A stretch of 64,000 nucleotides of DNA from a bacterium (GTDB lineage: Bacteria > Patescibacteriota > Saccharimonadia > UBA4664). This document shows, piece by piece, positions 8,690 through 64,000 of the stretch; positions within the stretch are counted from its first letter, which is position 1, and each line of letters starts with the position of its first letter. Made by a program: the position numbers and the translations under genes. The DNA is taken from assembly GCA_016699105.1 (NCBI GenBank), contig CP064960.1:520727-584726 (forward strand), in the 5' to 3' direction. The notes beneath the pieces are model-generated. The model did not search any database and was not told the origin of the DNA. It worked only from the letters and a program-made list of their open reading frames with translations.

Positions 8690-12165
<3,476 letters not shown>

Positions 12166-44292: not shown

Positions 44293-47262
44293 ATGAAAAA
44301 AGCAGTTCAACCTGATTTTCCGGCTTTTGAAGCGGAAATTCTGAAAACTTGGGAGTCTGAAAAAACATTTCAAGCAAGTCTTGAAGCGCGTAAACAGGGC
44401 CAACGGTTTAGTTTTTATGATGGGCCACCTTTTGCTAATGGCAAACCCCATTATGGACACATATTAGCTGCTACAATCAAAGATTCAATAACCCGCTATA
44501 AGACTATGCGAGGTTACTATGTCCCGCGTCGTTTAGGCTGGGATACTCATGGGCTGCCAGTCGAGTATGAGGTTGAAAAGAACTAAAATTGTCGGGTAAA
44601 CAACAAATTTTGGAATATGGCATCGATAAATTTAACACGGTCGCTCGGGCGAGTGTCTTCCGGTATCGCGATGTGTTTGAAAGTTTATATCGTCGTATGG
44701 GACGGTGGGCAGACCAAGATAACGCCTATGCCACATTGGATGATTCGTATATTGAGAGTGTGTGGTGGGTGTTGGCGAAGTTGCATGAGAAAGGTCTATT
44801 ATATCGGGGATTTCGTAGTAATCCTTATTGCCCCCGTTGCGCTACGCCGTTGTCGAATTTTGAAGTAAATCAAAATTACAAAGATAACGTGCCCGATCCC
44901 AGCGTGTACGTTAAATTTCCGGTAGTTGGGCGAGATGGCGTCAGTTTACTGGCTTGGACGACAACACCTTGGACATTGCCGGCGAACGCGGCCTTGGCAG
45001 TAAACAATGCGGCAGTATACGCAGAAGTTGAAATGCAAGGCGATGGTGATTCGTGGACGAAAGGCGAACGACTCATAGTAGCGAAATCGCGATTGGACGA
45101 ACTTACTCTACGTAAAGCCGATTTCCAGATCGTTCAAACGTATATGGGTAAAGAGCTCGCTGGATGGAAATATGTACCGTTATACCCAACAGTCCAAAAA
45201 TTGTCCGATAGCGAGCAAGCAGCCGTTCACACCGTGTACGTAGATGAAAGTGTCAGCCTAGACGATGGTACCGGAGTGCTTCATGTGGCTCCCAGATATG
45301 GTGAAACCGATTTGGCACTGGGCTTACGCGTTGGACTGCCACTGCTTGAGAGTGTAAACGGTTTCGGCAAAATGACTGATGCCATCACAGAGTTGGATGG
45401 CCTTGAAGCGGTCCGAGACACTTTTTCAAGCAAGCTGATGCGCATATTATTGCCGATTTAACGAGTAAAGGCCGGGTGTTTGCGGCAGAAACCTTTGAGC
45501 ATACCTATCCGTTTTGTTGGCGCTGCGAGACGCCGCTACTGTACTTTGCGATGCCGAGCTGGTTTATTGCTGTGACCAAATTGCGAGATCGGTTGGTTGC
45601 GAACAACGATCAAATCAATTGGACACCAGGTCACATCAAAGATGGCCGGTTTGGGAACTGGCTAGCTGAAGCCCGTGATTGGAATTTCAGTCGTAATCGC
45701 TTTTGGGTGCGCCACTGCCAATATGGGTAAACGAGCTAGACGAAACTGACTATATTGTGGCTGGATCCGTCGATGAACTTCGAAAATTGACAGGCGCTCC
45801 ACCAGATTTAGATTTACACCGGCCCGGAATTGACGCTGTTGTAATTAAGCGTGACGGCAAGGTCTATAAACGGACTGAGGAAGTTTTTGACTGTTGGTTT
45901 GAATCGGGTGCTATGCCTTATGCTCAAGATCATTACCCGTTTGCCGAGGCGGCAAGGTTTGAGCAAGCGTTTCCGGCAGAGTTTATCGCTGAAGGTCTTG
46001 ATCAGACTCGCGGTTGGTTTTACACATTGCATGTTTTGGGCACGGCATTATTTGATAAACCGGCGTTTAAAAATGTAATTGTAAATGGCATGGTGCTGGC
46101 AGCAGATGGTAAAAAACTGTCAAAACGACTCAAGAATTATCCGGATGCCGATGAATTGTTTGCGACGACTGGCGTTGATAGCTTGCGCTTTTTCCTCATG
46201 AGCTCGCCAGTGACGACGGGTGAAGATGTGCGCTTTAGCTTTGATGCCGTCAATGAGACGAAGCGTAACGTGTTTATGACCCTATGGAATGTCTATAGTT
46301 TTATGTCCACGTACGCCGAAATCGATGGTTGGGAACCTGCCAGTGCCTACCCTGACGGTAAACTGACAGAACCGACAAGCGATAATCTCCTCGATCAGTG
46401 GATGTTATCACGACTCAACCAAACTATCGCCGAAGTGACCGAGCAGTTGGATGCATACCAACTAGCTCGAGCAGTGCGACCTCTGCGGGATCTCATTGAC
46501 GATGTGTCGAATTGGTATGTTCGGCGGAGCCGACGGCGGTTCTGGAAGAGTGAAGATGATGCCGATAAAGCCAGTGCGTACGTAACGCTGCACTACGTTT
46601 TGTGCCGGCTGACACAATTATTGGCACCGTGGAGTCCATTTGTGCCTGACAAAATGTGGCGTGAACTGACAGCGGGTATGAAGGCGGCAAAGAGCGTTCA
46701 TTTGAGTGATTGGCCCGAAGATGGATCTATTGATGAAGCATTGCTGATGCGGATGTCGAGTACACGCAAAGTTGTGACCGACGGGTTATCGTTACGAGCG
46801 GCTGCCAAGATTAAAGTACGCCAACCACTGGCTCAATTGACCTATGCGCAAGACGATACGTTGGGACATGAGCTCGAGCAAATTGTGGCAGATGAAGTCA
46901 ACGTTAAAACCGTAACTTGGGGTAATGACACAAAGGTTGGTGATGCTGTCGTTTTGGACACTGAAATCTCTCCGGAACTGCGGGCTGAAGGCTTGATGCG
47001 AGAAGTAATCCGACACGTGCAAAGCGCTCGCAAAGCCGCTGAGCTTGAGGTAAATGATCGGATTAATTTGGAGCTGGCAGTCACTGACAATGAATTGTCG
47101 ACCGCTATTTCGACCTACTCAACAGTCATTGCGGCGGAAACGCTGGCTACGCAATTGGTGGTGAGCGGTCAAGAATTGCCCGATGGTAGTACGGTTAAAA
47201 TAGGTGGGATCGAATTAACACTACGGCTGCACAAGGCAGATCAAAGAGCTAAGATAGGTTAG
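44293..47262 (+). CDS. ileS: isoleucyl-tRNA synthetase, interrupted by three homopolymer frameshifts
   Basis: Four consecutive ORFs (44197-44586, 44589-45461, 45476-45730, 45703-47262) together give a full-length IleS, including the HYGH-type [14 protein letters not shown] as KLSKRL, and the editing domain. The shifts are at an AAAG/AAC run near 44580, the TTTTT run at 45422-45426 and a GGG run at 45704-45708. The start at 44293 is preceded by an AAGGAG RBS. Confidence 0.9.
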
Positions 47263-48377
47263 TGTTTGTATCCCGTTTTTGGCGAAATTTTGATTGGGTA
47301 ATCGCTGGCGTAACTGTACTGCTCGTGGTCATGGGTATTTTAGTTATCTGGTCGACGACGTTTAAAGCGACAACCCAAGTAGGTATGGGCGACGTCTGGC
47401 GCCAGCTTCAATTTGCGATAGTTGGCTTGTTGGGTCTGGCTGCAATGGCGCGCATTGACTATCGAACTTGGTCTAAACTGACTGTTTGGCTGTATGGTTC
47501 GATGATTGTACTGCTCTTATATGTCCTGCTTTTTACTAATTCGATATTGGGCGCACAGCGCTGGATAGATCTGGGGTTGTTTAATTTTCAGCCGTCAGAA
47601 TATGCCAAATTGGTTGTTATTATCGTGCTAGCTAAGTTTTTATCACAGTATTACGACCGACTGGAACACTGGCGATATTTACTCTGGTCGGTGGTGATTG
47701 TGGCGGTTCCAACTATCTTGGTCATGCGGCAACCTGATCTCGGAACGGCCTTAGTGCTGGGAGCGATTTGGTTGGCAATGGTTGCTTGTTCGCGGGTGCG
47801 TAAGTCGCACTTGGTGATTTTGTTTGGGGTGGGACTGGCCTCATTACCGCTATTTATAGCCAACCTCAAGCCCTATCAGCGAGCGCGTTTGGAAGCATTT
47901 TTCAATCCCGCGGCAGATCCGCTCAATACCGGCTACAATGCCGTGCAATCACAGATAACGGTCGGCAGTGGGCAAATTTTCGGGCGGGGATTGGCGGCAG
48001 GTTCGCAGAGTCAACTTAATTTTTTGCCTAGTCTGGCTCAGCATACCGATTTTATTTTTGCGGTGCTCAACGAAAAACTTGGGTTTGTGGGCGGGGTACT
48101 GTTACTGACATTATTTGGTGTTTTGTTGTGGCGGGGTTTGCGGATAGGTTATTTGGCTCAAGATCGGTTTGGCATGTTTGTCGCGGTGGGCGTGGTGGCC
48201 ATGATACTGTTTCACGTCACGATCAATGTTGGTATGAACTTAGGTATTGCCCCGGTGACGGGAATCCCTTTACCGTTTGTGAGCTACGGCGGGACGGCAT
48301 TACTGACGATGATGGCGGCAATTGGTCTATTGGAAAGCATTGCGGTCCGTCGCAAAAAGTTGCAATTCGAGGACTAG
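47262..48377 (+). CDS. FtsW/RodA/SpoVE-family peptidoglycan glycosyltransferase
   Basis: 371 aa with about 10 TM segments and the SEDS motifs (PSEYAKL, GYNAVQSQIAVGSGQIFG). Confidence 0.85.
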   Translation: MFVSRFWRNFDWVIAGVTVLLVVMGILVIWSTTFKATTQVGMGDVWRQLQFAIVGLLGLAAMARIDYRTWSKLTVWLYGSMIVLLLYVLLFTNSILGAQRWIDLGLFNFQPSEYAKLVVIIVLAKFLSQYYDRLEHWRYLLWSVVIVAVPTILVMRQPDLGTALVLGAIWLAMVACSRVRKSHLVILFGVGLASLPLFIANLKPYQRARLEAFFNPAADPLNTGYNAVQSQITVGSGQIFGRGLAAGSQSQLNFLPSLAQHTDFIFAVLNEKLGFVGGVLLLTLFGVLLWRGLRIGYLAQDRFGMFVAVGVVAMILFHVTINVGMNLGIAPVTGIPLPFVSYGGTALLTMMAAIGLLESIAVRRKKLQFED

Positions 48378-48475
48378 TCTTTACCAAACGGCTCGTTTCT
48401 GGTATGATACGGCGGATATTAAAAAATGAAGCACGCCTGCACCATCAAGCAGGCCTTTGAAAGGGGCTCACATTT

Positions 48476-48775
48476 ATGCAAGCAGTAATTATGACCGGCG
48501 GAAAGCAATTTCTGGTAACTTTGGATCAAGAACTCGATGTCGAGCTTATTGGTGATGCCAAGAAAATTGATTTCGAGCCATTACTGGTAATCGATGGCGA
48601 CAAAGTAACTGTTGGTCAGCCGACAGTTGCGGGAGTCAAAGTTAAAGCCGACGTCCTAGAAGAAGTGAAGGGCGATAAGCTCAAAATTCTCAAATTTAAG
48701 GCCAAAAAACGCGTCAAGAAATTGACTGGTCACCGCCAGCACTATTCTCGTATTAAAATTACGTCTATAGCGTAA
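48476..48775 (+). CDS. rplU: 50S ribosomal protein L21
   Basis: MQAVIMTGGKQFLVTLDQ...KFKAKKRVKKLTGHRQHYSRIKI matches L21. No rpmA (L27) follows. Confidence 0.9.
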   Translation: MQAVIMTGGKQFLVTLDQELDVELIGDAKKIDFEPLLVIDGDKVTVGQPTVAGVKVKADVLEEVKGDKLKILKFKAKKRVKKLTGHRQHYSRIKITSIA

Positions 48776-48793
48776 GCCCAAACGGTCGGTCGG

Positions 48794-49912
48794 CTACTGT
48801 ACGACCCAATACTCGAAGCTGTAGCTGGTGTTGCTGGACGACGGTGCGTTGACTGCTCCCACGGTAAATCCGGTGGCGGTTTTAATGATGTATGGTTGCA
48901 AGGCAGCGCTGCCGCTACCTATGGGCGTGATGATGATATGGGGTGCTCGCGGATAAGCTGATTTGAAGGTGAGGTTGACGAGTAATCCCGCGGTAGAACC
49001 ACTTCCGGTGCGAATTGTGAGGGTGCCGGCGGAATCAATCCCCTCAACACTGGCACTCGAGCCTGATCCGGCTTGACCAGCCGGTGATGCTGATGGAGCT
49101 TGGCCAGAAATCGAAATATGTCCACCGATATTGAGGGTACCGGTCACTGTAACGGTCGTGGCATTGACTGTCGGCGCTGACACGACACCACCGAAACTGC
49201 CATTACCCGTGGTCGTGAGATTGCCGGTAACGGTAGCGCCGGCGCCCAATGTGACGGGGGACTGAGCACTCAAAGGACCAGCTACCGTGAGCTGGCCACG
49301 GACATTGGTGACACCAAGATTGGCCGTTTTATTGGCAGTCAATCCAGCCAATGTCGTATCGCCCGATACTTCAAGTCCACCAATGACCTTGAGGTCTTGG
49401 GAGACAGCGACACGGTTCGAAAACAAAGTGCTGGGGCTAATTGTTAACGTCTGGGCATTGCTCCCGGCTGAATTGCCTTCGAAAAAGCTACCGAGTTTCT
49501 TGAGATCTTCAGACGATAATTCGGTTGTCGTGGTAGTAGCGGTCGGTTGGTTTTTCGATTGCCGGATGGCAAACCAATAATAGCCGCCGAGTAAGGCGGC
49601 CAGGGCGATAATGACACCCAAGGTAGTCAAGAGTGTCGTCATGATATCGGCGCGACGATACACGCCGGTGCGCGACACTTTGCCTTTTGATACCGGTCGA
49701 TGACCATCGCCGGCTGACAATACCGTTGGCATGGTGCCATCTGATAGTGCTTCTGCAGGTGGCGCACCGGCTTTGGCCGCTGTCGGCGGAGCCGGATCGG
49801 CAGGTTTCGCTGGTTTGTCGGATTCGCTTTTGGGGTTTGCGGGTTTTACTGGTTCGTCGGCCATAGTCATATGATACCGCTTGTGGTTTGGAGCAGCAAA
49901 CTGTGTTAGCAT
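48794..49912 (-). CDS. type-II membrane protein with Pro/Ala/Lys-rich cytoplasmic head and extracellular beta-helix-like T/G/V repeat domain
   Basis: The N-terminal segment is Pro/Ala/Lys-rich (ADEPVKPANPKSESDKPAKPADPAPP). One TM follows (MTTLLTTLGVIIALAALLGGYYWF). Then come repeats of the LEVSGDTTLAGLTANKTANLGVTNVRGQLTVAGPLSA type. The likely start is MTMADEP at 49870. Confidence 0.7.
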   Translation of the reverse strand: MLTQFAAPNHKRYHMTMADEPVKPANPKSESDKPAKPADPAPPTAAKAGAPPAEALSDGTMPTVLSAGDGHRPVSKGKVSRTGVYRRADIMTTLLTTLGVIIALAALLGGYYWFAIRQSKNQPTATTTTTELSSEDLKKLGSFFEGNSAGSNAQTLTISPSTLFSNRVAVSQDLKVIGGLEVSGDTTLAGLTANKTANLGVTNVRGQLTVAGPLSAQSPVTLGAGATVTGNLTTTGNGSFGGVVSAPTVNATTVTVTGTLNIGGHISISGQAPSASPAGQAGSGSSASVEGIDSAGTLTIRTGSGSTAGLLVNLTFKSAYPRAPHIIITPIGSGSAALQPYIIKTATGFTVGAVNAPSSSNTSYSFEYWVVQ

Positions 49913-49919
49913 GACAGAT

Positions 49920-50866
49920 ATGGCTGTGTTCCAGGAGTTTAATCATGCCGTGCAGTTTGGACGGCGATTGCCCAAAAGGGAAACATCCTATGCCACCCTG
50001 GTATTCTTGATGATGGCATTAGGTGTGCTGTTGGGTAGTTTTACTTGGACGGCGGCAGCCGACACGCAGGGGACTGCCAAATACAGCGTGACGGCGGTGG
50101 TACCAGGTGCACGGCCAACTCAACCCGTCGTTATAACCTCACCGACAACTGGCCAAACTTTTACCGTCAATCCCGTTGTGGTGGAAGGAACCTGTCAGCC
50201 GGCGACATTAGTAAAAGTATTTACTAATGGCATCATGGTTGGCAGTATTTTTGTAGTGAAAACGGCCGCTTCAGTATTCCGGTGCAACTCGTGATTGGAC
50301 GCAATGATTTAACGGCGCAATCATTTAACGCTCTGGATCAAGAAGGGCCAACATCGGGGACAGTGACGGTTACACTCAACCAACCACCAGGAGCACCCGG
50401 CTTTTCCACTGAGTTATTGATTCAATCGGAGAATTATTATCGGGGGAGCGAGCCTGGTCAAGAGATTGTGTGGCCGATTGAACTCATTGGCGGATTGGCA
50501 CCGTATGCGGTGAGTATTGATTGGGGTGACGGTACTCAAGATCTCATAACCAGGTTGGCGCCGGGCCGGTTTACGGTCAGTCATACCTATAAACAAGTCG
50601 GGGGATACTTGGGATCATACCCGCTCATCATTCGGGCGACTGATTCGGCAGGTCGGACGGCTTATTTGCAATTGACGACCATCGTTAATTCGCCAACGGG
50701 TGCTACAACCGATGGCAGTGGTGCCCAGGCGACGAGCACAACTATCACAAAACTACTGGTGATTTGGCCGATATGGATAGTATTACTGTTGATGATAATC
50801 TCATTCTGGCTGGGTGAACGCCGTGAGAAACATATTATGCAGCGACAAATGGCGGCCTTGGCATGA
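49920..50866 (+). CDS. secreted Ig-like/PKD-domain protein with C-terminal TM anchor, one frameshift
   Basis: Signal peptide (RRLPKRETSYATLVFLMMALGVLLGSFTWTAAA). An Ig-like segment follows, then a PKD-type motif VSIDWGDGTQD...FTVSHTYKQVGGY. The C-terminal TM is LLVIWPIWIVLLLMIISFWL. ORFs 49881-50294 and 50282-50866 join if the TTTTT run at 50247-50252 is corrected. Confidence 0.7.
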
Positions 50867-51570
50867 AGTGGTTTGGTAAACGACGGCCACCTGAACCGGA
50901 AGCGCCGGCTGCTCTGCATGCCAGTGAGCTTCATGGCATGGCGGCTGAGGATTTGGCCGATTATGAGCAAGAGCTAGAATTAACTGATAAGCGCGAAGGC
51001 AAGGGATCCCGGCGTAAAGCTTGGTGGATCACGATTATCATCATGGGGGTGGTAGTAGGCGGTACCATAATTTTGATTTTGAAATATACTTCGGCTCCGG
51101 TAACAGTTGATTTGTCGGCGGCCGCTCCCAGTATTCGGCCGACGCCGACACCTCAAAATGGTCGGGGATTATTATCGGGAATATATGTGGCTTTGGAATA
51201 TCCGGGAGAATTTGATCAAGTCTCGAGAATAACTTCTGACCCAACGGCACTCGAACAATATTCAATCGGTTCGAAAGCCAGTTACCGGCGGCTGATTGCG
51301 GTAAATGTGCGCAAACTGGAATCAGGAAATCTAGATGATGATGCTAGTTATAAACGGCGGCTATTGTATCCAAAAGAGTATACTGAAACCAAGCAGGCGG
51401 TGACGGGAGCTAAGGTGAGTATAATGACAAAAGTAGATGGTCATGAACAAACGCTCTTTTGGGCGCAGGGGGGAAAACTGTTAACGGTGTCGGCTACTTC
51501 AACAGAGTCCGGTGACAATGTACCGGCCTTTTTGGCGACGGTGCGGGAGAGTGTGACATGGCGTCAATAA
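50863..51570 (+). CDS. single-pass membrane hypothetical protein
   Basis: 235 aa. An N-terminal charged region is followed by a TM (AWWITIIIMGVVVGGTIILIL) and then an extracytoplasmic domain. Confidence 0.6.
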   Translation: MKWFGKRRPPEPEAPAALHASELHGMAAEDLADYEQELELTDKREGKGSRRKAWWITIIIMGVVVGGTIILILKYTSAPVTVDLSAAAPSIRPTPTPQNGRGLLSGIYVALEYPGEFDQVSRITSDPTALEQYSIGSKASYRRLIAVNVRKLESGNLDDDASYKRRLLYPKEYTETKQAVTGAKVSIMTKVDGHEQTLFWAQGGKLLTVSATSTESGDNVPAFLATVRESVTWRQ

Positions 51571-52613
51571 CTACGTGGCTGGGATTACCATTGGTATTGT
51601 TGCTATCGGCGTTACCAGCCAGCAATAACTACGAGCTCGGATCATATGGCTTTGGGACCGGTGGCACCAGTAACTCGAGCTCGAGCAACTATCGAATCAA
51701 TGGCGCTGCCGGTGAAGTAGCGGGGTCACAAAACTCAACCAATTATAAAGCAGGTGCTGGTGTCAATTATGAACAGCAAGCGAACGTGCCGATCATCACT
51801 ATTAGTAATGATGACAATTGGTACAACAAACTCAAAATTATCATTGATGCGCAGAACAATCCTAGTGACGCGGTTTTTGCGGTGGCCATATCGACAGACG
51901 GCTTCACGACCACCCAGTATGTGAAATCTGATTTAACGATTGGTTCGACATTAGCCCTAACAGATTATCAAACCTATGCAGCTTGGGGTGGGGCAACCGG
52001 GGTGATGGTGCGCGGACTGGCACGGTCGACGGTCTATTCGGTGAAGGCCCGGGCCATGCGGGGTGATTTCACTGAAAGTGCCTGGGGACCGACGAGTAGC
52101 GCCAGTACGGTAGATCCGACTTTGGTATTTGATATTGATGTGGCGCCAACTGATACGTCGACAAGTTCACCATATGTCGTGGATTTTGGTAGTTTGCCGG
52201 TCAGTACGGTCAGCCAGCCAGCTGATCAAGTGTGGGTTAGTTTGAGTACCAATGGTGAGTCTGGCGGTAAAGTATATCTGAGTGGCCAAAACGCTGGTTT
52301 ACGTAGTACCTTGGCCAGTTACACGATTGCCTCGCAAACTGGCGATTTGAGTGCATTAGCAGAAGGATTTGGGGCTCAGGGGCAATCGGCTACTCAGGGT
52401 TCAGGTGGACCATTGAGCTTGGTCGCGCCGTATAATTCAGCGGGTGCACTCGTGGGAGTTACTGATACAGTTATTCGGGAGATGTTTACAGCACCTGCAC
52501 CTGTTACATCGGGTCGGGGTTCGTTTACCCTCAAGGCTAAAACCCAACCACTGACACCTTCGGGTGGAGACTATGCGGAACTGTTACAGGCTATCGCCTC
52601 GGCGAGCTTTTAA
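51558..52613 (+). CDS. secreted hypothetical protein
   Basis: 351 aa with a signal peptide (MASITTWLGLPLVLLLSALPASN), then a Ser/Thr/Gly-rich globular region. No known motif. Confidence 0.65.
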   Translation: MASITTWLGLPLVLLLSALPASNNYELGSYGFGTGGTSNSSSSNYRINGAAGEVAGSQNSTNYKAGAGVNYEQQANVPIITISNDDNWYNKLKIIIDAQNNPSDAVFAVAISTDGFTTTQYVKSDLTIGSTLALTDYQTYAAWGGATGVMVRGLARSTVYSVKARAMRGDFTESAWGPTSSASTVDPTLVFDIDVAPTDTSTSSPYVVDFGSLPVSTVSQPADQVWVSLSTNGESGGKVYLSGQNAGLRSTLASYTIASQTGDLSALAEGFGAQGQSATQGSGGPLSLVAPYNSAGALVGVTDTVIREMFTAPAPVTSGRGSFTLKAKTQPLTPSGGDYAELLQAIASASF

Positions 52614-52706
52614 TGATTGTGAATAAATGGGGTTGACAAAAATACAGCGTTTACAATAGGATAAGCGTAAGTAGTTCAGTAATAAAAACTACAAATCAAA
52701 ATCAAA

Positions 52707-53846
52707 ATGCAGAATCGAAAACTACACATCACCCTCGCCGCAATCGCCGCCATCATGGCGGACTTGTTCGTGCCAGCGCTTGTTGGTACGGCTTTAGCGG
52801 CGCCACAGTTTACGCAAGCGTTCGTACGACCTGATCGGCACAAGGAGCTGACAGCTACAGGTGCGACCGTTTGTGCGACACCGACAGCAGCGACAACTGG
52901 TCAAACTGAAGACCAAGTGGTGGTCATATTCCCGACTGACGGTGGTGCCACTGACTTTGTGGTAAACGCTACCGCTGCGAACTGGGTTGTAAACAATACC
53001 GACCTGCCAGCGGGCTCGACTTTCTGGCCTGGTATGACTTCGGGAACAACAACAGCATCAAATGTCAGTGGAAAAACCGTCACTTTTCCATCAGGTGACT
53101 TGTCAGCAGCAACTCAGTATTGTTTTCACATTGTAGGCACAAACACCCTGACAAATGGCTCGGCTACTACCTCTATCAACATTACTGGTGCGACATTATA
53201 TAGCCGAGTATCTGGTGGACCTACGATCGTTAACCAAACCAACTGGGCTTATACTGTAACTACCGATGATAGTATTGTCATCTCAGCGGTAGTGCCGCCG
53301 AACTTCACCATCGCCTTGAGCGCCTATGTAGACGCCTTCACAACAAACCTTGACCCTGCCGGCATCGTCAGCACCACAGGAGTTGATGCCACTATCACGA
53401 CCAATGCTGTCGGTGGTTGGATAGCTTGGGCCAAAGATCAATATGGTGGACTGTATTCGGCCGCAGCTAACTATACCATAGCTTCAGGGCTGATGAACCC
53501 ATACCCAACCCAACTGTATGCGGTCGGCGACCCTGCCTTCGACCTGGTGGCCAGTGCCGGTGGAGTTGGACGTGAAGGTTACGTCATGGACGTCGATATC
53601 GATACTGATGCTGCAAGCGGTTGTACCGTCGCAATTGATGCTGCGTACAACAGCGCGAGTGGTAATGGTGGCGGCGTCTTGAGCAGCACCAGTTTCCGGC
53701 CAATCGCTGGTTGTACCGGAACAGCGCCTGCGACTTCAGATGGTGATATCATCACACTCATCGAACGAGCGGTCATCCGCGGTGGTACTCCAGCCGGATC
53801 AGACTATACCGACGTCATTACTGTCGTCGGTGCTGGTAACTTCTAA
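52707..53846 (+). CDS. secreted surface protein, paralog A of a tandem pair
   Basis: 379 aa with a signal peptide. It shares conserved blocks with the next gene: VVPPNFTIAL, GGWIAWAKDQYGGLYSA, EGYVMDVDIDTDAASGCTV, AGCTGTAPATSDGD and a C-terminal SDYTDVITVVGAGNF. Confidence 0.75.
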   Translation: MQNRKLHITLAAIAAIMADLFVPALVGTALAAPQFTQAFVRPDRHKELTATGATVCATPTAATTGQTEDQVVVIFPTDGGATDFVVNATAANWVVNNTDLPAGSTFWPGMTSGTTTASNVSGKTVTFPSGDLSAATQYCFHIVGTNTLTNGSATTSINITGATLYSRVSGGPTIVNQTNWAYTVTTDDSIVISAVVPPNFTIALSAYVDAFTTNLDPAGIVSTTGVDATITTNAVGGWIAWAKDQYGGLYSAAANYTIASGLMNPYPTQLYAVGDPAFDLVASAGGVGREGYVMDVDIDTDAASGCTVAIDAAYNSASGNGGGVLSSTSFRPIAGCTGTAPATSDGDIITLIERAVIRGGTPAGSDYTDVITVVGAGNF

Positions 53847-53972
53847 AAGTACCATTCACTTTCGAAAACTATCATAGCCCATAAGCAACATGCAATAGTT
53901 TACTTGCATGTTGCTTATGCTTTGGAGTACACTTGAGGGGAAACTAGAAATAAAGAGAGAGTGTAGATTAGA

Positions 53973-55049
53973 GTGTCCATGCAGCGGGTCCGGCGGACAA
54001 AGCGAATACGGATAGTCGGAGCTATAATTCTGCTGCTCGCGGTAGTGGCTGATTTTGTACCTATACAGGCACAAGCTGGGTTTATCCAAGCTTATTTGCG
54101 TCTCGACCGGATGAAGATTAACACTGCTAGCGGTGGTTTGGTCTGTGCTCGGGCGTCATTGGCCGGTCCAACCGAAGCCAAAGTCATTGTGACATTTCCT
54201 TCGACGTATACGCTTAATACTACGGCTGCCAACTGGGTGATGACAACCACCAATCTGCCGAGCGGAGCTACGGCCTGGCCGGGTGTTGTGTCTGGTACTA
54301 CTACAGCCAGTGCTGTGGACAATACTCTCAAGACGGCGACGTTTCCGTCAAATGACTTACCTAACAACACCACGTTGTATTGTTTTAATTTTGCGGCCGC
54401 CAGTACATTGACGACAGCGGCTGCGGCCGCTAATAGTCAGCAAGCCAGCATTCAAACTCAGACATCAGCCAATGCGGTGATTGATCTGACGCAAATAGCA
54501 CTAGCTAATGCTACCGATGACACTATTCTTGTGACAGCGGTGGTGCCACCGTCGTTTATTTTTACCATGAGCGGTTATGCTGACCCCTTTGCTTCGAATC
54601 TAGACCCGCTCGCGGTTGTAAACACGAGCGGTATTATGGTTGATGTCGTCACAAACGCTAAAGGTGGCTGGATAGCGTGGGCGCGTTCGCAGTACGCGGG
54701 ATTATATTCGGCGACGGCTGGGTATACTATCCCGACCGTTGGTACGATCAACGGAGCTGTATCGAACCTAACGGCTGGAAATGAAGGGTACGTGATGGAT
54801 GTAGACCTGACGGCTGATGCGGCCAGCGGTTGTACAGTCAATATTGATAATGAATATGACGGATCTACAGCCACTGAGGGCGGAACGCTGTCGACGAGCT
54901 ACCAGCCTTTAGCTGAGTGTACAGGTACCTCTCCTGCAACTGCCAATCATGATCAATTTACTCTGACTGAACGCGCGGCGATTTCGGGTGCAACGCCAGC
55001 CAGCTCAGACTATACTGATAATATAACGGTCGTAGGGGCAGGTAATTTT
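53973..55049 (+). CDS. secreted surface protein, paralog B of the tandem pair
   Basis: It shares the same motif set with paralog A (VVPPSFIFTM, GGWIAWARSQYAGLYSA, EGYVMDVDLTADAASGCTV, AECTGTSPATANHD, SDYTDNITVVGAGNF). The track ORF reads through to 55157, but removing one T from the T6 run at 55045-55050 creates TAG directly after GAGNF, matching paralog A. Confidence 0.75.
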
Positions 55050-55056
55050 TTAGACT

Positions 55057-56160
55057 ATGAAGTTGTCCGATTCGGTAGTGAAATGGGTGTGTGCCAGTTT
55101 AAGTGCGGTCATGATTGCGGGCAATTTGAGCTGGCCGGCGACGGTATATGCGGTTGACGCTGAAGAATCCGCGCCGCTGGTATTACAAACGTCGCCGTTG
55201 CCGATAAATTTGCAAGTTGATCCGGGTAAATCGGTAACTACCGAGCTCAAAGTCAAACAAAGTGGGACTGAAAAAGCCCGGCTCAAGGTCGGTTTGATGA
55301 AATTTACTGCCTATGGTGAAGAGGGTAAGCCCGAACTCAAAGACCGAGAAGCTGGTGATGATTATTTTGATTGGGTTAAATTTGATAAAACCGAATTTGA
55401 TGCGCCCATCAATGTGTGGCAGACCGTCAAAATGACTATTACGGTACCAAAATCAGCCGCTTTTGGGTATTACTATGCTGTAACGTTTTCGCGCGTGGGT
55501 GACGATGTGAAACGGACTGACCGGACCAACTCAATCGCGGGAGCGACAGCGACATTGGTGCTGTTAGAAGCTGTTAATCCGAATGCAAAGCGCGAGCTGC
55601 AGCTTGATAGTTTTGGCTCAAAACATCGGGTATATGAGTTTTTGCCGGCTGAGTTTGATATCAAACTCAAGAACGTGGGTAATGTGCATGCGGTACCTTC
55701 GGGAGATGTATTCATCTTGCAGGGCAATAAGCAACTGGCGGCGTTGCCGATCAACGGTGGCTTCGGCAATATATTGCCGGATTCAAACCGAATATTCCCG
55801 GCGAAGTGGAGCGATGGCTTTCCGCACTGGGAGCCAGTGATTGCCGATGGTAAAACCAAGCTGGATAAGAACGGCAAAATTGTTAAAAAATTGGTCTGGG
55901 ATTGGGGCAAGCTTAGTAGTATCAGGATTGGTCGCTATACTGCCCATTTATTTGCCGTCTATGACGATGGTAAGCGCGATATTCCAATTGAAACTGAGAT
56001 TACGTTTTGGGTGATTCCGTGGCGGTTCCTACTAGTAGTGCTGGTGATATTGGCACTGGTGGCTCTCGGTGTGTACGGTATGGTGCGGGAGGCTTCAATA
56101 AACTGGCTGGCAAGCGCGGCAAATCAAGGACACTGCGCGGCCGGAGGCGGTAATGATTAG
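55057..56160 (+). CDS. DUF916/DUF3324-like cell-surface protein with C-terminal TM anchor
   Basis: Signal peptide. The N-terminal domain (VLQTSPLPINLQVDPGKSVTTELKVKQSGTEKARLKVGLMKFTAYGEEGKPEL) and C-terminal domain (FDIKLKNVGNVHAVPSGDVFILQGNK) are arranged like CscA-type Gram-positive surface proteins. It ends with a TM segment (FLLVVLVILALVALGVYGMV). Confidence 0.65.
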   Translation: MKLSDSVVKWVCASLSAVMIAGNLSWPATVYAVDAEESAPLVLQTSPLPINLQVDPGKSVTTELKVKQSGTEKARLKVGLMKFTAYGEEGKPELKDREAGDDYFDWVKFDKTEFDAPINVWQTVKMTITVPKSAAFGYYYAVTFSRVGDDVKRTDRTNSIAGATATLVLLEAVNPNAKRELQLDSFGSKHRVYEFLPAEFDIKLKNVGNVHAVPSGDVFILQGNKQLAALPINGGFGNILPDSNRIFPAKWSDGFPHWEPVIADGKTKLDKNGKIVKKLVWDWGKLSSIRIGRYTAHLFAVYDDGKRDIPIETEITFWVIPWRFLLVVLVILALVALGVYGMVREASINWLASAANQGHCAAGGGND

Positions 56161-57090
56161 TCGGCGACAGATCTGGTTACTGGCAGTAATGATTGTCTGT
56201 CTGCCGGCAGTAGCGATGTCGGCAACCAAACCCACTGGACTCGTGCTGACGCCAGCTTTTCAGACAGTGCAGATAAAGACTAATGATGGTCGGCTCCCAT
56301 TTGAGCTTTCGATAACCAATCGCGATACCTCGGCACAAACGTTTGCCTTGTCGGCAATTGATTTTGGCAGCCTTGATGAAGAAGGTGGCGTGGCATTTCT
56401 GGGAGCGCCAGCCAGTGAACTCGAGCACAAGTATGGCTTGGCGGCTTGGTTGGAGCTCTCTCAGAAGTCGGTTGTAGTGTCTCCCGGGCAAACGGTAAAA
56501 GTGGGGGTGACGATCGTTAACCGACCCAGTTTGGTGGCAGGCGGACATTATGGAGCAGTCTTAGCTACGGCTCAACTACCCGGATCGGCAGTTAAGGGTG
56601 AGCAAGTCGGTGTGCAACAAGTCTTGAGTAGTTTGATACTGGCGGTCAAAGAAGGCGCTGGTGGTGCCAAATTGGATCTGAAAAAGACAAACTGGCACCA
56701 CAGTTTTTGGCGCTTGCCGACTGAGTTTAAGCTCGGATTTGGCAATAGTGGCACGGTTCACGCGCTGCCGCGAGGTACGGTGGTGGTAACAGATCCTGGG
56801 GTCGAAAAGTGGCTCAAGGCGAGCTCAATGAAGCCAGTAGCGTGATACTGCCGGAAACGAACAGGAATTATGAAGTCGCTATGCGGACTGTCAGTCAAGC
56901 TTGGTTGCCCGGCCGCTATATGGTCAGTATCAATTATCGCGACGAAACCCAAGAAAATTTTCAGGCAGTCCATCAGACAATATGGCAGGCGGGTGCGGTC
57001 GTCGTCTGGGTTGCCATGGTGTTGGCAATCTTAAGTACCGCCGGACTGGCTTGGTGGTTGTTTGGGCGTCGCCGAAAACGTCGACGTTAG
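56153..57090 (+). CDS. second DUF916/DUF3324-like anchored surface protein, with a frameshift near 56810-56845
   Basis: Same architecture: signal peptide, LVLTPAFQTVQIKTNDGRLPFELSITNRDTSAQTFALSAI, then GNSGTVHALPRGTVVVTDP. The C-terminal part (NYEVAMRTVSQAWLPGRYMVSINY...VVVWVAMVLAILSTAGLAWWLFGRRRKRRR) is in overlapping ORF 56809-57090. Confidence 0.65.
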
Positions 57091-57185
57091 CCTCAAAAAC
57101 TCTTGTGTTTAATCTGTAAACCAGTTATGCTTTTGGTGTAACTTTGTGATGGTAGGCGAGTGCCCAAAGGCTTGTTTTTAGCCGA

Positions 57186-60100
57186 ATGATGTGGGTTAAG
57201 TCGGTAGCATATAACCGTCGCAAGGTCGCTGGGGCACTCTTTGCCACCAGTCTTTTGGCGTTGGCTTTGTTCTTGAATGGACTAAGCAGTGTGCAAGCTG
57301 CAGTTGGTATCAATAAACAGGTCAATTTCCAGGGTAAAGTCGTCAATGCCAATGGCACCAATGTAGCCAATGGTACCTATACGTTTGTGTTTAATATCTA
57401 TACCCAACAGGCTCCCGGTGGGACTTCAATTTGGACCGAGTCAAAAAGTCTGACCGTGACAGACGGAATTTTTCAGACCAATTTGGGTTCGGTGACGAGC
57501 CTTCCGGGATCGGTGGACTTCAATACCGATAATATTTTCCTGGGGATAAACTTCAACAGTGACGGCGAAATGACGCCACGTATTCAATTCACGGCTGCCG
57601 CCTATGCCTTTAACTCAGATCGTTTAGGTGGACTGACGGCGGCATCGTTCGCGCAGCTCAGTCCAGCCTCTGCCCAAACCGGCTCGCTCAATGTCACTGG
57701 CACGGTGCAAGCAGCTACTAGTTTACAAGCGCCATTACTCGATACGGCGACGGCTGTGGCGCTCAATATTGGTACTGCCACTGCTACAAGTGTGACCATT
57801 GGCCGGACTTCAACACCGTTTGTGGTGCAAGGCAACAGTAGCTCGACTTTTACAGCCACCAACGGTAGCTTTACAGCTACAGTTGGCTTTACGACCCCGA
57901 CGGCCAATAACAGTATTTCGTTCCCGAATGCCGGGGGCACAATTTGTACGACTGTCGCTAGTACCTGTAATACCACTTACGCACCATATGCTGCTGGTGG
58001 ATATCTGGCCAAAAATGCTGCCGACACCTCAGCCGCAGCCGTGACGGCTGCCAATTACTTGTACGGATTTACCAATTCGAGCTCGGCCGTGGCAAGTGGA
58101 GTTCTACGACTCGACAATGGTACCAACACTGGTAACGGTTTGTTGGTTACAGCCAGTGGTAATCCGGGTGCTAGCAGTGCCTTAATTGTGGCCAACAACA
58201 CCGCCGGATCCCAGCGGCAATTTAATTGATCTCAAAAGCCGGAGTCGGTGTCTTTACAGTTGATTATAACGGTAGCCTGACCCAAAGCGGGGATCAGGTA
58301 CTACCCAGACGATTAACGGCCAGAGGATATCGAGTGCGGCCAACTTCACTGGCACCGTGACGGCTGCTACCAGTTTCTTGAGTACGTTGATCGATACACC
58401 TACTGCTGGCGGAACACTGGCAATTGGTACGACCAACGCTACTGGCGGTATCAATTTGAACCAAAATACCACGGTCGGTAGTGGCAAGACTCTCACCGCA
58501 AACGGATCAGTCCTGGTACAGTCAGCCGCCAATTCTACTTCGTCGTTTAACATTAAAAATTCGACAAACAATAACTTATTTACAGTAGATACTTCAAACT
58601 CAAGAGTCGGCATTAATCTGACTAGCAATAATGTACCGACACTTCAGGGAACCGGGTTGGAAGTGAATGGAGCATTACGGCTATCGGGTGGACGTAGTAG
58701 TGGTACGGCGGTCGATACATTTACAACACCAGCAAGTAGTAGTGTTGAAACTAAAATTAATATACCGATATATGATGCAGGGGCATTCGGACAGGTTTTA
58801 GCATTTGGCTTACCGTCGACAGGCTGTACTGGTGTAACGACTACCAGCTGTACGGCCAGGGCTATTTCCGTTTTTGACGCACGGACGCTTAGCCATCAAC
58901 CTTCAATTGGCGTGTTCGCACCAGATGAAAATACCTTGGTTGGTTTTTCGTGGGAAGGCAGTAATAGTGTGGCTTCGGTAATGACAAATTCAGGTAGTGG
59001 ATCTAGTGACGGCATCATACTGCAAAGTGGTGCCACCACGGGCGCCAGTGGTACCTCGGGTACCGTATCGGTGGTCAGCGGCGACGGCACTGGTACCAAT
59101 AGCTCAAGTGGCAACGTGACAGTAGATTCGGGCGCCAAGACTGGTACCGGTACGAATGGTACGGTAAATATTGGTACAACTAATGCCAGTGCCGTGACGG
59201 TAGGTCGCAACAATAGCGGTGTAGCTTTGACGTTGCAAGGATCAGCTTCGACCATTTTCCGGGCGACTGGTGTGAGTGGTACCACTACATTAGACTTCAC
59301 CGCTCCCAGCGGCTCGAATACTGTGCATGTGCCAGCCGAATCGGGCACGATTTGTCTCCAATCAAGTGTAAACTGCGGTTTTGTAGTAGGTTCGTCGACA
59401 AGCTTCTTGGCGCGTAACGCTGCCGATACTTCGACAATCAATGCAGCGGGAAATCTTTATGGTTTGAGCAATACTAATGCTGGCGCCGCTGGAGTGCTGG
59501 CTTTGACTAATGCTGGCACCAACTCGGCACTGGCAGTTACGAGCTCAGGTAACCCAACGAGCGGTCAAGCGGTCATATTGGCTACTAATTCAAATGGTTC
59601 TCCCAGCGGCAATCTTATCGATCTGCGGGTGACAGCAGGGAGTCGGTTTAGTGTGGACACAGCGGGTGTAGCGACAGCAACAAATTCGATCGTGACACCA
59701 ACCCATACTTCGGCAGATGTAGCAACTGGATTATCGGCTGATGCCACGTTTAGATCTGGTAACGGGACCGCTGGTAACGCTAGTACTGGCAGTGTTACGG
59801 TACGGTCGGGTAATGCTAATGGTACTGGCAGCTCGGGAAATGTGACGTTTGATGTTGGTACCAAAGGTGGGGGAGTCGGAAGTAATGCTGGAAATCTGTA
59901 TATCGGCAATACCAATGCGGCCAATGTGGTGGTGGGTCGAAATGCGGTTACGGCCAGTGGCGCCACCGTTTCCATCCAAGGCTTGGCCGCCACCAGTAAT
60001 ATGATTATGAACAATGCCGCCAATACGGCTAGTACCACGATAGGATTTCAAGCACCAACTGCCAACGTAACCTACGAATTTGCGGCCGCGACTGTCGGAA

Positions 60101-62904
60101 CCTATCAATTGTGTAGCACCTATGCCACAACCTGTAGTACGACTTATGCACCCTATACGGCTGGTGGTTACTTGGCTAAATCGCCGACAAGCACCGAAAG
60201 TTCAAGTAGCTCGATAGCGGGCAATCAGTACAGTTTTGCTAATACTAATGGTGGGGCCGCGGGTGTGCTGGCACTAGCCAATACCGGTACGAATTCGGCG
60301 TTGAGCGTGTCGAGTGCGGCCAACCCAACAAGCGGCCAAGCGGTAATCTTGGCGACCAATTCCAATGGTACGCCTTCAGGCAATTTACTTGACTTGCGGG
60401 TAACGGCGGGTAGCCGGTTTAGCGTTGATGCGGCTGGAGCGGTAACCACCAGTAGCACTATTAATGGGCAGACCATTTCAGCAACGGCCAACTTTACCGG
60501 TACCGTCACGGCAGCTAATACAGTCAGTATTACTACAGGTGGCTTGAGTGTGACGGCTGGTGGTGTAGCTATTACAGCAGGTGGACTAACAGTGTCAGCA
60601 GGTGGAGCGAATATTAGTGGTGGTCTCAATAATAATGCCGGTGGCATTACCAATACCGGAGCTGTCAGTGGGGCGACCAGTTTAGCCTTTACGGGTGCGG
60701 CTGCAGATGTTACGGGCGCCCGGGACATTACCGGAACGGGCACCATTACTGGTGGCGGAGCGTTCAAATCGGCAGATAGCACGACGGCTAGTTCAAGCGC
60801 TACCAGCCTCAAGAGTGGAGATGTCAACACTGCTACGAACGGATTTAATACCGGCAATGTGATCGTTGACTCTGGTGCTCGAACGGGTGGTGGAACTGGA
60901 ACAACTGGCACTGTCAGTATTGGGGCGACTAATGCCAGTGGTGTGACGGTTGGTAATAGCGCTGCAGCCTTTACCGTGCAGGGAACGGCTGGTAGTGGTG
61001 CGTCGAAGTTAGTTTTGGAAATACCACGGTCAATGCCCAATCGTCAGCGACGGTGGCTACCTACCAATTTGCCGCACCGACCAGTGCCACAACTTACACC
61101 ATTTGTACGACTGATACCGCTTCCTGTGGCGCTGGTTCCGTGGGGTATTTGCGCAAAGGGTGGCGGGCGAGACATCTTCGGCTGGCATGACGGCCGCGCA
61201 AGCGCTGTACAACTTTTCCAATACTGGTGGTGTCCAAAGTGACGTTCTTCAACTCGATAATGGTGCTGGCACTGGATCGGCCTTACGCGTAACGGCAGCT
61301 GCTAGTGCGGCGGCCAACAATGCCCTGGTGTTGGTGGACAATACCCTCAACAATGCTACGGGCAATCTGCTTGATCTACGAAGTACTCAAGCCGGCGTCA
61401 GCGCCAGCCGCCTAAGCGTGAGCACGACGGTGCGGTTACGGGCGGCACTTTCAACGGCCAAACGATAAGTGCCACTGCTAGTTTCACAGGTACTGTTGGT
61501 ACGGGCGGACTGTTGACAGCCCATAGCTTGACCGTGACAAACACAGCTACCTTCAATGCTGGAGCGACTGTTAACAACGTGGCCTTGACGGCCAATGCTG
61601 GAGCTTCCGTGACCGGTGGTATCAATAACAACGCGGGCGGCATAACGGGTGCTGGAGCCATCAGCGGATTGACGAGCCTCGAGTTTAGCTCGGCTGGCAC
61701 CATTGATACCAACGCTGCCATTTCTTTGAGTATCGGTACTGCTCAAGCTTCGACAGTGTCCGTCGGTCGCACTGGTGGCACGCTCAGTTTGCAAGGAAAT
61801 GCTTCAACGTCACTTTCGGCGACCAACGCAGGTTCGACTACCAGTCTGCAGTTTGCCACACCTACCGCCAATGTGATCTACCAATTTGCGACAGCTCCAG
61901 CTAACACCTATCAGATCTGTACCACCTATGCCAGTACTTGTAGCTCAACGTATGCTGCCTATTACGCGGGTGGTTATGTGCAGTTGGCTCCCGGCACAGC
62001 CCAGGCCGACGCCACAGCTAACCCCAGCATCTTTATCAGCAAAACAGCAGCTGGTTATCTGGCCAGACTCCAAAATACCGGCACAGATGTATTTTCGGTT
62101 CAAACGAACGGCACTATGACATCGAGTGGTTTAGCCTACTTGGGTGGCACATCTGGCAATTATGTAGCGCAAGTTGATACGACTAATTTCAAAGTGCGCA
62201 TTGGTACTGGTACGCCCACTAGGGGCAGTGAAGGTGCCAATTCGACGGCTGGCTTGTATGTGAGTGGCGCCACTGAAGCGGCTGGACTCGTACTTATCGG
62301 TACTACTTCCAACGGGGCCACCTTCGACGCAACCAACCATGAGCTGACGTTATCGGGTACTGCCCGGCACACTCGTCGGGTCTCAATGGTGCCGGAATAT
62401 GCCGGGGCAGTTATGACACCGAGCGGTACTTCAAATACGGGGTTGATGACCTCGGACTTTTGTTCTGGATCAGGGCGCCTAAACATTCCAACTAGTGGCA
62501 ATGTGTGTGCATCCAGCGACGAACACAACTTCTATAAATGGGTGTCGGCCAACTCGAGTACCCAAACATATGACATCTATGTGCGGTATTTGCTCCCGGC
62601 TGACTTTTCGGCCTTTACCGGCGATAATACAATATACATGAGCGGTTACCGGACGACATCAAGTGATAGCGTAGCTCTGGCTATCTATCAACCGAATGGC
62701 ACAATTTGTGGCTCATCGACGAACATAGCTACCGGTACGGCAGCCTGGACCGAGAATACGGTGACTGCGCCCATCGCCACCACCTGTGCTGCCAACTTTA
62801 CTGCTAATTCATTGGTGACGTTCCGGGTAAGACTGACCTCAACGAGTACGGTAAATGCAGCGTTAGCAGGGGAGATACGGTTTGACTATCGCTCGATTTA
62901 TTAA
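57186..62904 (+). CDS. giant secreted repetitive surface protein of about 1900 aa, fragmented by several frameshifts
   Basis: The ORFs are 57186-58229, 58357-61242, 61160-61468 and 61513-62904, plus pieces in other frames. The first ORF starts with a signal peptide (MMWVKSVAYNRRKVAGALFATSLLALALFLNGLSSVQA). At least five repeats of a roughly 330-aa module carry Q[FI]xxPTANxxYxFA...TYQ[IL]C[ST]TYA[ST]TC[ST][ST]TYA[PA]YxAGGY[LV] and NSNG[ST]PSGNL[IL]DLRVTAGSRFSVD. The DNA repeats are about 75% identical (59521-59680 vs 60291-60450). The sequence ends with a distinct C-terminal domain and a TAA stop at 62904. Confidence 0.7.
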
Positions 62905-62909
62905 TAAGT

Positions 62910-64000
62910 TGCCGCGACCATCGCGGGCGTGGTGGACTCAAGCTCGTGATGGCAAACCAGCCCGGATTGTGGGCGTGGCGGTATTTAGCTTGAGTTTGTT
63001 TAGTGGCTTTGCGGCGGTTATGATCCGGCCACCAGGAGCATCGGCGCTCATTGAAACTGGCGATGGCTTAACGGTCTATGGCAATAGCGCCACTTCATCG
63101 ACAACACCGCGCTACCGTGATTATTATGAATTAACTGATTCATTTGGCTCTGAGACAAATACCGTATCGGGCTCGACGCCTTTGGCGATGCAGATTAAAA
63201 CGTCGCCCGTCAAAACTGAAGCCATAGTGGGTTATCAGAACTCGTCGGGTACTCTGCAAATTATGTGCTATGACGGCACCAACTGGAGTAACGATTGGAG
63301 TGTATCTAGCTATGGTACTGGCGTTACACGGGCGTATGACATTGCCTATGAGTGGCAAAGCGGTGATGTCGTTGTTATGTATAGCACCAATACTGCCACC
63401 ACCAATGAATTGGCATTTCGGCGCAAAGCTGGCGGAAAGGCCTGTGGTGGGGCTAACTGGGATTCGGCCGTCAACGTTAATCCGGTGCGGACGTCGGCCA
63501 TTATCAACTGGGTAACTTTGCAGCAAGACCAAAATAGTAATAACATTGCAGCTATTTGGGCAGATTCAAGTCGCGACTTATCGGCCATGATTTATGACGG
63601 GACAGCTGGTACCTGGGGCAATGAGCCCACGGCCGCTATTGCGACCAATTTATCGTATGTGACATCAAGCACACGATCGGACACGGAATCGTTTGATTTG
63701 GCTTATGAAAGTGTATCCAGTGACTTAATGATCGTCGCGGGTAATTCGGGCAATACATCGAGTGGTAATAACCTAATCACCTATAAAACTTGTACCGGCG
63801 GTGGAGCGTCTTGTACCTGGCAAACGACGAGCACAGTCCCTTCGCAACAGGCTCAGGATAATGCCAATCACCTGGATATGGCGGCCAATCCACAAACCAA
63901 TGAAATTGTGTTTGGCGCAATTTCGAATGGTGAAGACTTGTCGATTGGCTATTGGGACGGCTCGTCATGGCCGACAACTGGTAGCCGAGGTCTGCCCAAT
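62910..64000 (+). CDS. secreted or membrane-anchored protein with beta-propeller-like repeats, partial (runs off the window end)
   Basis: It has an open frame from the TTG at 62910 to the window end, about 363 aa. The N-terminus is basic with a TM (KPARIVGVAVFSLSLFSGFAAVMI). Repeated YDGTxxW / WDGSSW blocks follow. The ORF track omits it because the window has no stop. Confidence 0.65.

Follow-up and report, generated by a model that had tools for sequence, protein, structure and literature searches.

The window analysed in this study is a stretch of 64,000 nucleotides from a member of the Saccharimonadia (contig CP064960.1, positions 520,727 to 584,726), and close to its end, at positions 57186-62904 of the forward strand, lies a gene for a giant modular protein that we propose to be a secreted surface fibre. 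As the sequence stands, the gene is broken into four long open reading frames (ORFs) in three frames (57186-58229, 58357-61242, 61160-61468 and 61513-62904). Reading through all three frames recovers one continuous protein-like translation with six frame switches: from frame 0 to 1 near 58208, from 1 to 2 near 58237, from 2 to 1 near 58292, from 1 to 0 near 61003 (61003-61014), from 0 to 2 near 61158 and from 2 to 1 near 61421 (61421-61429). The joined pieces amount to about 1,902 residues, and repair of the six assembly indels yields one ORF of about 1,905 codons. The original prediction, made from the letters of this DNA, had placed both the start and the stop codon correctly and had described a gene broken by at least five frameshifts. 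The frame does break, six times rather than five, but our comparisons indicate that this breakage is not a biological property of the gene.

The evidence for this comes from close relatives. Our first homology search retrieved a single 1,907-aa ORF, which we call P0001, with 98% protein identity over 100% of the query. The contig that carries it (L001) was assembled with SPAdes from short reads, and its genes follow the same order as those of the window. Alignment of L001 with window positions 47194-63006 (15.8 kb) gives 95.8% identity, with 645 mismatches and 16 indels. In twelve of the 16, the window lacks 1-2 nt relative to L001, for the most part within or next to short homopolymers of A, T, G or C; one, at 55046, is a surplus T in the window, and the other three lie together at about 47840-47846 and compensate one another. 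The indels at 58210, 58234, 58289, 61014, 61158 and 61429 match the six frame switches, all six being 1-2 nt deletions against L001 and most of them falling in or adjoining short homopolymer runs. The remaining indels are located at the 3' end of ileS, in four neighbouring genes (50248, 55046, 56087 and 56795) and in intergenic DNA (52629 and 57175), and the rate of homopolymer-type indels across the aligned 15.8 kb is about one per kb. Even the essential ileS gene, a 987-aa gene in L001, appears in the window as at least two separate ORFs, which cover positions 88-184 and 240-410 of the tRNA-synt_1 profile. Two homologues from two other datasets (P0002 and P0003, 84-85% identical) stay in a single frame across each of the six break sites. 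The codons of the gene differ between the window and L001 by 244 synonymous and 17 non-synonymous changes, a ratio that resembles those of the neighbouring genes. We conclude from these alignments that the six frame breaks are homopolymer-type assembly errors and not a feature of the gene. Because the relatives are intact, because the indels strike neighbouring genes and intergenic DNA alike, and because of the ratio of 244 to 17, the comparisons further indicate that the gene is live, intact in close relatives and under purifying selection. The indel or split sites of the surrounding region are found at 44589-47262 and at 47243, 50248, 52629, 55046, 56087, 56795 and 57175, and the upstream genes of 318, 357, 365 and 312 aa are truncated, extended or split by indels in the window. 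Apparent pseudogenes elsewhere in the window should not be taken at face value, but treated as artefacts until the sequence is re-polished.

The body of the protein is built on an internal repeat rich in Thr, Ala, Gly, Ser and Asn, five copies of which are detected by self-BLAST at 38-54% identity, with E-values down to 1e-35, and by a hidden Markov model (HMM) of 239 positions at E 1e-99 to 1e-21. The five repeats of the original prediction are therefore real, but the module is about 240 aa in length rather than about 330 aa. In P0001 the HMM places the copies at residues 154-401, 625-864, 867-1117 and 1204-1448, and a fifth, incomplete one at 1474-1669. A spacer domain and Gly/Thr-rich linkers intervene, which makes the spacing from copy to copy uneven (245 to 470 aa). 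The alignment of the copies begins with the pattern SG[ND]..G....SGNV..D.G......G.V.IG.TNA..V.VGR, continues with.QG.A., F..PTA and a C-x6-C loop, which is followed by Y..Y.AGGY in copies 1, 3 and 5, and ends with L.L.N.GT..AL.V, N.NG.PSGNL.DL, FSVD..G and TINGQTIS..A.FTGTV. The Cys pair claimed for each copy is borne out, as C-x6-C is present in all five, and in an alignment of 30 module sequences conservation reaches at least 90% in either Cys column. In the same alignment a G-N-L-x-D-L block is near-invariant; the longer NSNG..PSGNL..DLR block is absent from the truncated fifth copy. Over the whole protein, 63% of residues are Thr, Ala, Gly, Ser or Asn and 6.8% are charged, and all 16 Cys residues fall into eight local pairs with a spacing of 7 to 26 residues. 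Such composition and Cys pairing would fit an extracellular, disulfide-stapled fibre, and the description of a giant modular surface protein made from Cys-pair repeats is supported, at the level of sequence, by the five C-x6-C modules.

This module does not resemble any repeat in the libraries that we searched. Pfam returned no family for the module in the window and no family common to more than one of 30 module instances, NCBIfam and PHROGs gave no match to it, and a module profile found nothing among PDB sequences at E up to 10, where searches with P0001 and with a profile of the C-terminal domain were also empty. A search of 50,697 phage genomes was likewise without a match. Apart from the weak N-domain match described below, scans of the fragments and of P0001 against Pfam, NCBIfam and PHROGs gave no hit. 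The suspicion that the module stands outside the characterised adhesin families is thus supported; judged by these searches, the ~240-aa module, and the family of the candidate phyla radiation (CPR) that is built on it, match no curated family in Pfam, NCBIfam, PHROGs or PDB. Counts of homologues given here refer to the 120 homologues listed. The family that we define combines an N-terminal domain, Cys-loop modules and a C-terminal jelly-roll, and its members are recognised by one or more ~240-aa modules that contain both a C-x6-C loop and a G-N-L-x-D-L block. The protein of the window, with its five copies, belongs to it; 191 module instances occur in 56 of the 120 homologues, with 1-12 per protein. 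When 1.84 billion cluster representatives were searched exhaustively with the module profile, only 453 matched at E up to 1e-3; at 1e-10 the number falls to 249 and at 1e-30 to 97. The module-bearing representatives mostly measure 1,000-4,600 aa, and a single protein can have as many as 19 matched stretches. Some members, such as P0121 (4,527 aa), P0123 (4,635 aa) and P0048 (3,229 aa), have 13-19 matched module stretches, suggesting that the module can amplify into far longer shafts than the one described here. An AlphaFold2 (AF2) monomer model of the module, made with the 30-sequence alignment, has a predicted local distance difference test (pLDDT) score of 71 and a predicted template modelling (pTM) score of 0.49, and shows an extended chain with two short hairpins only and almost no intrachain sheets. 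The weak top hits of this model in Foldseek include the triple-beta-helix tail fibres of streptococcal phages (HylP) and, at rank 28, Bd2133; they are at noise level and we have not used them as evidence of fold.

Two further domains, both missed in the original prediction, flank the repeats. The protein begins with a Sec-type signal peptide (residues 1-38, with a hydrophobic segment at residues 12-30), likely to be cleaved after VQA (VQA|A). It is followed by an N-terminal domain that is the most conserved part of the family, present in 83 of the 120 homologues with a start at median residue 45. Many homologues share this domain only, covering 6-8% of the query at 60-75% identity. Its sole family match is NCBIfam NF053851 (Bdello_MAT_N), the N-terminal domain model of the mosaic adhesive trimer (MAT) fibres of Bdellovibrio. 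The fragment in the window reaches E 1.4e-5, and all eight N-domains tested from diverse members match NF053851 and no other family, at E 8.8e-11 to 8.2e-4 and 19-42 bits. From these matches we regard the domain as distantly homologous to the Bdellovibrio MAT N-domain, although not a member by the curated threshold; as far as these searches show, this sub-threshold link appears to be new. We propose that the domain is a putative cell-proximal base or anchor. N-domain relatives with 50-60% identity to the first ~110 residues are also found on contigs of metagenome-assembled genomes (MAGs) labelled "uncultured Gammaproteobacteria" (L020, 1001-1345; L021, 1001-1336; L026, 1001-1567), so that either these contigs are mis-binned or the N-domain has spread outside the CPR.

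At the other end, the fifth module merges into a C-terminal domain of about 267 aa, for which the structure model is confident (pLDDT 83, pTM 0.75). The modelled fold is a beta-sandwich whose core is a jelly-roll of the type found in carbohydrate-binding modules (CBMs) and lectins, and in a BFVD search it matches phage proteins of the minor-tail, tail-fibre and S74-containing kinds at E about 4e-6. The domain occupies the extreme C-terminus of 53 of the 120 homologues, in at least three sequence flavours. We propose it as a putative distal ligand-binding tip. Between modules 1 and 2 lies the spacer domain, which by eye recurs in P0002, P0005, P0011, P0016 and P0022 and has the conserved motif ...AFGLP...ARAISVFDAR...PDEN..GFSWEG. 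The coordinates of all features are collected in Table 1.

Table 1. Features of the fibre gene and the gene block upstream of it; positions are those of the window unless a contig is named.
Feature	Position	Strand	Remarks
Whole gene	57186..62904	+	Start codon 57186, stop codon 62902-62904; orthologue is the intact P0001 (1,907 aa)
Sec-type signal peptide	57186..57299	+	RRK n-region, hydrophobic core AGALFATSLLALALFL; read from the translation
N-terminal domain, ~129 aa	57297..57683	+	Similarity to NF053851
Module 1	57648..58386	+	Cys pair 57945/57966; three assembly indels at about 58210, 58234 and 58289
Spacer domain, ~220 aa	58387..59055	+	Between modules 1 and 2; own C-x7-C pair 58825/58849
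Module 2	59056..59775	+	Cys pair 59353/59374
Module 3	59782..60534	+	Cys pair 60112/60133; copy behind the module alignment and structure model
Gly/Thr/Ala-rich linker	60535..60792	+	Sequence TGGLSVTAGGVAITAGGLTVSAGG...
Module 4	60793..61524	+	Cys pair 61104/61125; three assembly indels at about 61014, 61158 and 61429
Module 5, partial, divergent	61600..62187	+	Cys pair 61918/61939; without the PSGNLxDL block; merges into the C-terminal domain
C-terminal domain, ~267 aa	62101..62901	+	Two Cys pairs, 62461/62506 and 62707/62785
Seven-gene upstream block	~50250-57090		L001 2719-9901; L003 2725-9845; L004 2413-9761

The family to which this protein belongs is a mosaic one. In its members the shared N-domain is followed by Peptidase_S74 (PF13884; 7 of the 120), collagen repeats (PF01391), CBM_4_9 (PF02018), LamG (PF13385), beta-helix (PF13229) or Kelch domains, or by the ~265-aa jelly-roll, and exchangeable C-terminal tips, both S74 and non-S74, are thus found at the level of the family. 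The homologues that carry an organism name are from Candidatus Saccharimonadia or Saccharibacteria, together with a few other CPR (Moraniibacteria and Levybacteria), and the module-bearing clusters that have a source name or lie in named genomes also come from Saccharimonadia or other CPR. A single-protein scan of GTDB species genomes finds 27 loci, nearly all in MAGs of Saccharimonadia or other Patescibacteria, the closest being an 88% match in a Saccharimonadales MAG. In the literature that we searched on Saccharibacteria and Patescibacteria, there is no description of this family.

It has been established that cultivated Saccharibacteria are obligate epibionts whose epibiotic growth needs several surface adhesins, and transposon sequencing in one Saccharibacterium found several unnamed surface "adhesins" to be essential (PMC10633639). 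We consider it reasonably probable that the gene described here is a single live gene of an ultrasmall, epibiotic bacterium of the Saccharimonadia encoding a secreted, MAT-like surface fibre or adhesin of about 1,905 aa that binds the host. Judging from sequence, structure models and analogy, we think that its most likely function is to bind a glycan of the host cell, because of the MAT-like architecture, the mosaic nature of the family and the need of epibiotic Saccharibacteria for adhesins. According to this proposal, the protein would be exported by the Sec pathway and held at the epibiont's own envelope by its N-domain. The modules would make up a long shaft, probably a homotrimer, to which the short disulfide loops would lend stiffness; its extended form is suggested by the near absence of intrachain sheets from the AF2 monomer model. 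The C-terminal jelly-roll would bind a glycan on the host bacterium and so contribute to attachment and host range, as in the scheme of MAT fibres and phage tail fibres. Peptidase_S74 and collagen repeats are established features of trimeric fibres (PMC10769870), and the relatives in which they share the N-domain lend indirect support to a trimeric fibre.

The closest parallel is offered by the MAT fibres of Bdellovibrio bacteriovorus (Caulton et al. 2024, PMC10769870), in which an invariant N-domain lies near the predator surface and is followed by an intertwined trimeric shaft and variable tips, with or without S74. Like these fibres, our protein is a long, Thr/Gly/Ser-rich and predicted secreted surface protein, its N-domain is combined in the family with varied shafts and with S74 and non-S74 tips, its own C-terminal tip is modelled as a beta-sandwich, and it belongs to an organism that depends on recognising other bacteria and attaching to them. 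However, the shaft consists of a ~240-aa disulfide-looped module that is absent from the MAT structures in PDB, and the owner is a cell-wall-associated CPR epibiont, unlike Bdellovibrio, which is a Gram-negative predator. Several observations also weigh against the proposed host-binding fibre. The similarity to the MAT N-domain is sub-threshold, all NF053851 scores being under the curated 60-bit cutoff, and extends over no more than roughly the first half of the model (profile positions ~10-91 of 162); scans of whole proteins against NCBIfam give no NF053851 match. The module model is only moderately confident, and its Foldseek matches in PDB are not significant (E above 0.2, TM 0.17-0.27). 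The C-terminal domain is kept in about 44% of the retrieved relatives and is not freely variable as the MAT tips are, so that it may not be a freely swapped tip, and its CBM-like fold is a generic one, in the model of which no ligand-binding residues were identified. Because the jelly-roll fold is so general, we infer ligand binding rather than read it from the model. Trimeric autotransporter adhesins (YadA, Hia and Hsf) have a similar repetitive fibrous architecture, and the automatic annotation of the Joint Genome Institute (JGI) names some homologues "fibronectin-binding autotransporter adhesin". Nevertheless, the fragments and 30 module instances have no Pfam match to the YadA anchor, Hep_Hag or other domains of these adhesins, and the model of the C-terminus shows a soluble jelly-roll where these adhesins have a beta-barrel.

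Other explanations of the gene have to be weighed against the same observations. In the main alternative, the protein would be a monomeric beta-solenoid or "beta-strand repeat" protein of the envelope, such as an S-layer-like coat or generic surface spacer, with a mechanism unrelated to that of trimeric fibres, whose modules fold alone and whose C-terminal domain binds the organism's own wall. In one source a homologue goes by the name "beta strand repeat-containing protein", the frequency of the C-terminal domain among members is as might be expected of an anchor, and the gene is situated within a conserved block of envelope-protein genes adjoining cell-division genes; moreover, trimerisation of the protein is a prediction only. 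On the other hand, the N-domain consistently matches the MAT fibre N-domain model, the proteins that share it end in Peptidase_S74 or hold collagen repeats, both features of trimeric fibres, the AF2 monomer of the module is almost without self-contained sheet structure, and the Pfam scan reveals no SLH or other S-layer or wall-binding domain. We therefore regard an envelope protein of this kind as unlikely, while giving it some weight. Much less can be said for an origin from a prophage or phage tail-fibre gene, which we consider extremely improbable. Phage fibres and receptor-binding proteins (T5 pb1, HylP and those of Klebsiella phages) share with our protein an order of N-terminal attachment, fibrous shaft and C-terminal CBM-like domain, the modelled tip is structurally similar to domains of phage minor-tail and tail-fibre proteins, and Peptidase_S74 occurs in some family members. 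However, tblastn of P0001 against 50,697 phage records yields no match, the protein belongs to no PHROGs family, the module has no significant fold match, no phage genes lie nearby, and the locus is conserved and chromosomal, with flanks (ileS, ftsW, L21 and the seven-gene envelope block) that remain syntenic even where the orthologues are only 53-55% identical.

The frame breaks themselves, six in number and mostly at short homopolymers, might be taken to mean real decay, as in a pseudogene, or slipped-strand on/off switching of a phase-variable gene. We give this very little credence, as the runs are only 3-6 nt, under the typical length of phase-variation tracts, like indels recur at the rate described above in intergenic DNA and in neighbours including the essential ileS, the ratio of 244 to 17 shows no relaxed constraint, and none of three independent relatives is broken at any of the six sites. 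The fragments are neither the separate genes nor the decayed remnants that the original prediction had named as possible outcomes of resequencing: separate genes are ruled out by the intact orthologues, which span all fragments, and decay by the same orthologues together with the excess of synonymous over non-synonymous substitutions.

The locus is chromosomal and lies downstream of ftsA, ftsZ, ileS, ftsW and L21. Directly upstream of the gene are seven Pfam-poor genes of 318, 235, 351, 379, 357, 365 and 312 aa, whose order is kept upstream of orthologues at only 53-55% identity. They encode proteins with a signal peptide or a C-terminal transmembrane helix and with hints of immunoglobulin-like (Ig-like) folds. 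The 351-, 379- and 357-aa proteins form a group of secreted paralogues, of which the 379- and 357-aa members end in VVGAGNF, the 365- and 312-aa proteins form a second group with a signal peptide, a C-terminal transmembrane helix and a basic tail, and the 318-aa protein has a Glucodextran_B/Big Ig-like match at E 1e-7. Together the seven genes may encode a partner of the fibre or an apparatus that anchors it. We also considered a WxL/Csc-type cluster for these genes; there is no Pfam match to WxL or DUF916, and no such claim is made. Downstream, a second giant gene begins at 62882 with a TTG start that overlaps the stop codon of the fibre gene, and continues to 64000 and past the end of the window. 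It is 80% identical over 362 aa to a 1,743-aa gene downstream of P0002 in L002, and has an N-terminal transmembrane helix and an architecture unlike that of the fibre; the orthologous downstream position in L004 is occupied by a 1,528-aa Kelch/beta-propeller protein. Elsewhere in the window, at 8695-12161, a 23S rRNA match extends over 3,467 nt against a model of 2,925 nt, and the about 540 nt of extra sequence are probably an insertion or intron. Insertions and introns in 23S rRNA genes have often been reported in CPR bacteria.

Apart from type IV pili, little is known of the means by which CPR bacteria, or Patescibacteria, recognise and hold their hosts (PMC12206443). Mosaic fibrous adhesins are a known kind of object; what seems to be new, from our comparisons, is the repeat module and its CPR family, a compact family of about 450 clusters in 1.84 billion that is unnamed in the domain libraries searched and whose architecture parallels the prey-recognition fibres of Bdellovibrio and the receptor-binding proteins of phages. 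We would go further only tentatively. It is possible, though on balance doubtful, that Patescibacterial epibionts own a large repertoire of MAT-like fibres, that the anchoring N-domain is shared with Bdellovibrio by ancient descent or horizontal transfer, that the module is a new trimeric shaft fold and that such fibres are a principal determinant of the hosts to which a Saccharibacterium can attach. The sequence comparisons and structure models make the protein a good lead on host recognition in CPR bacteria. If the proposed function is true, this family would provide concrete candidates for host-range determinants, and its conserved N-domain would serve as a handle for finding the full repertoire in metagenomes.

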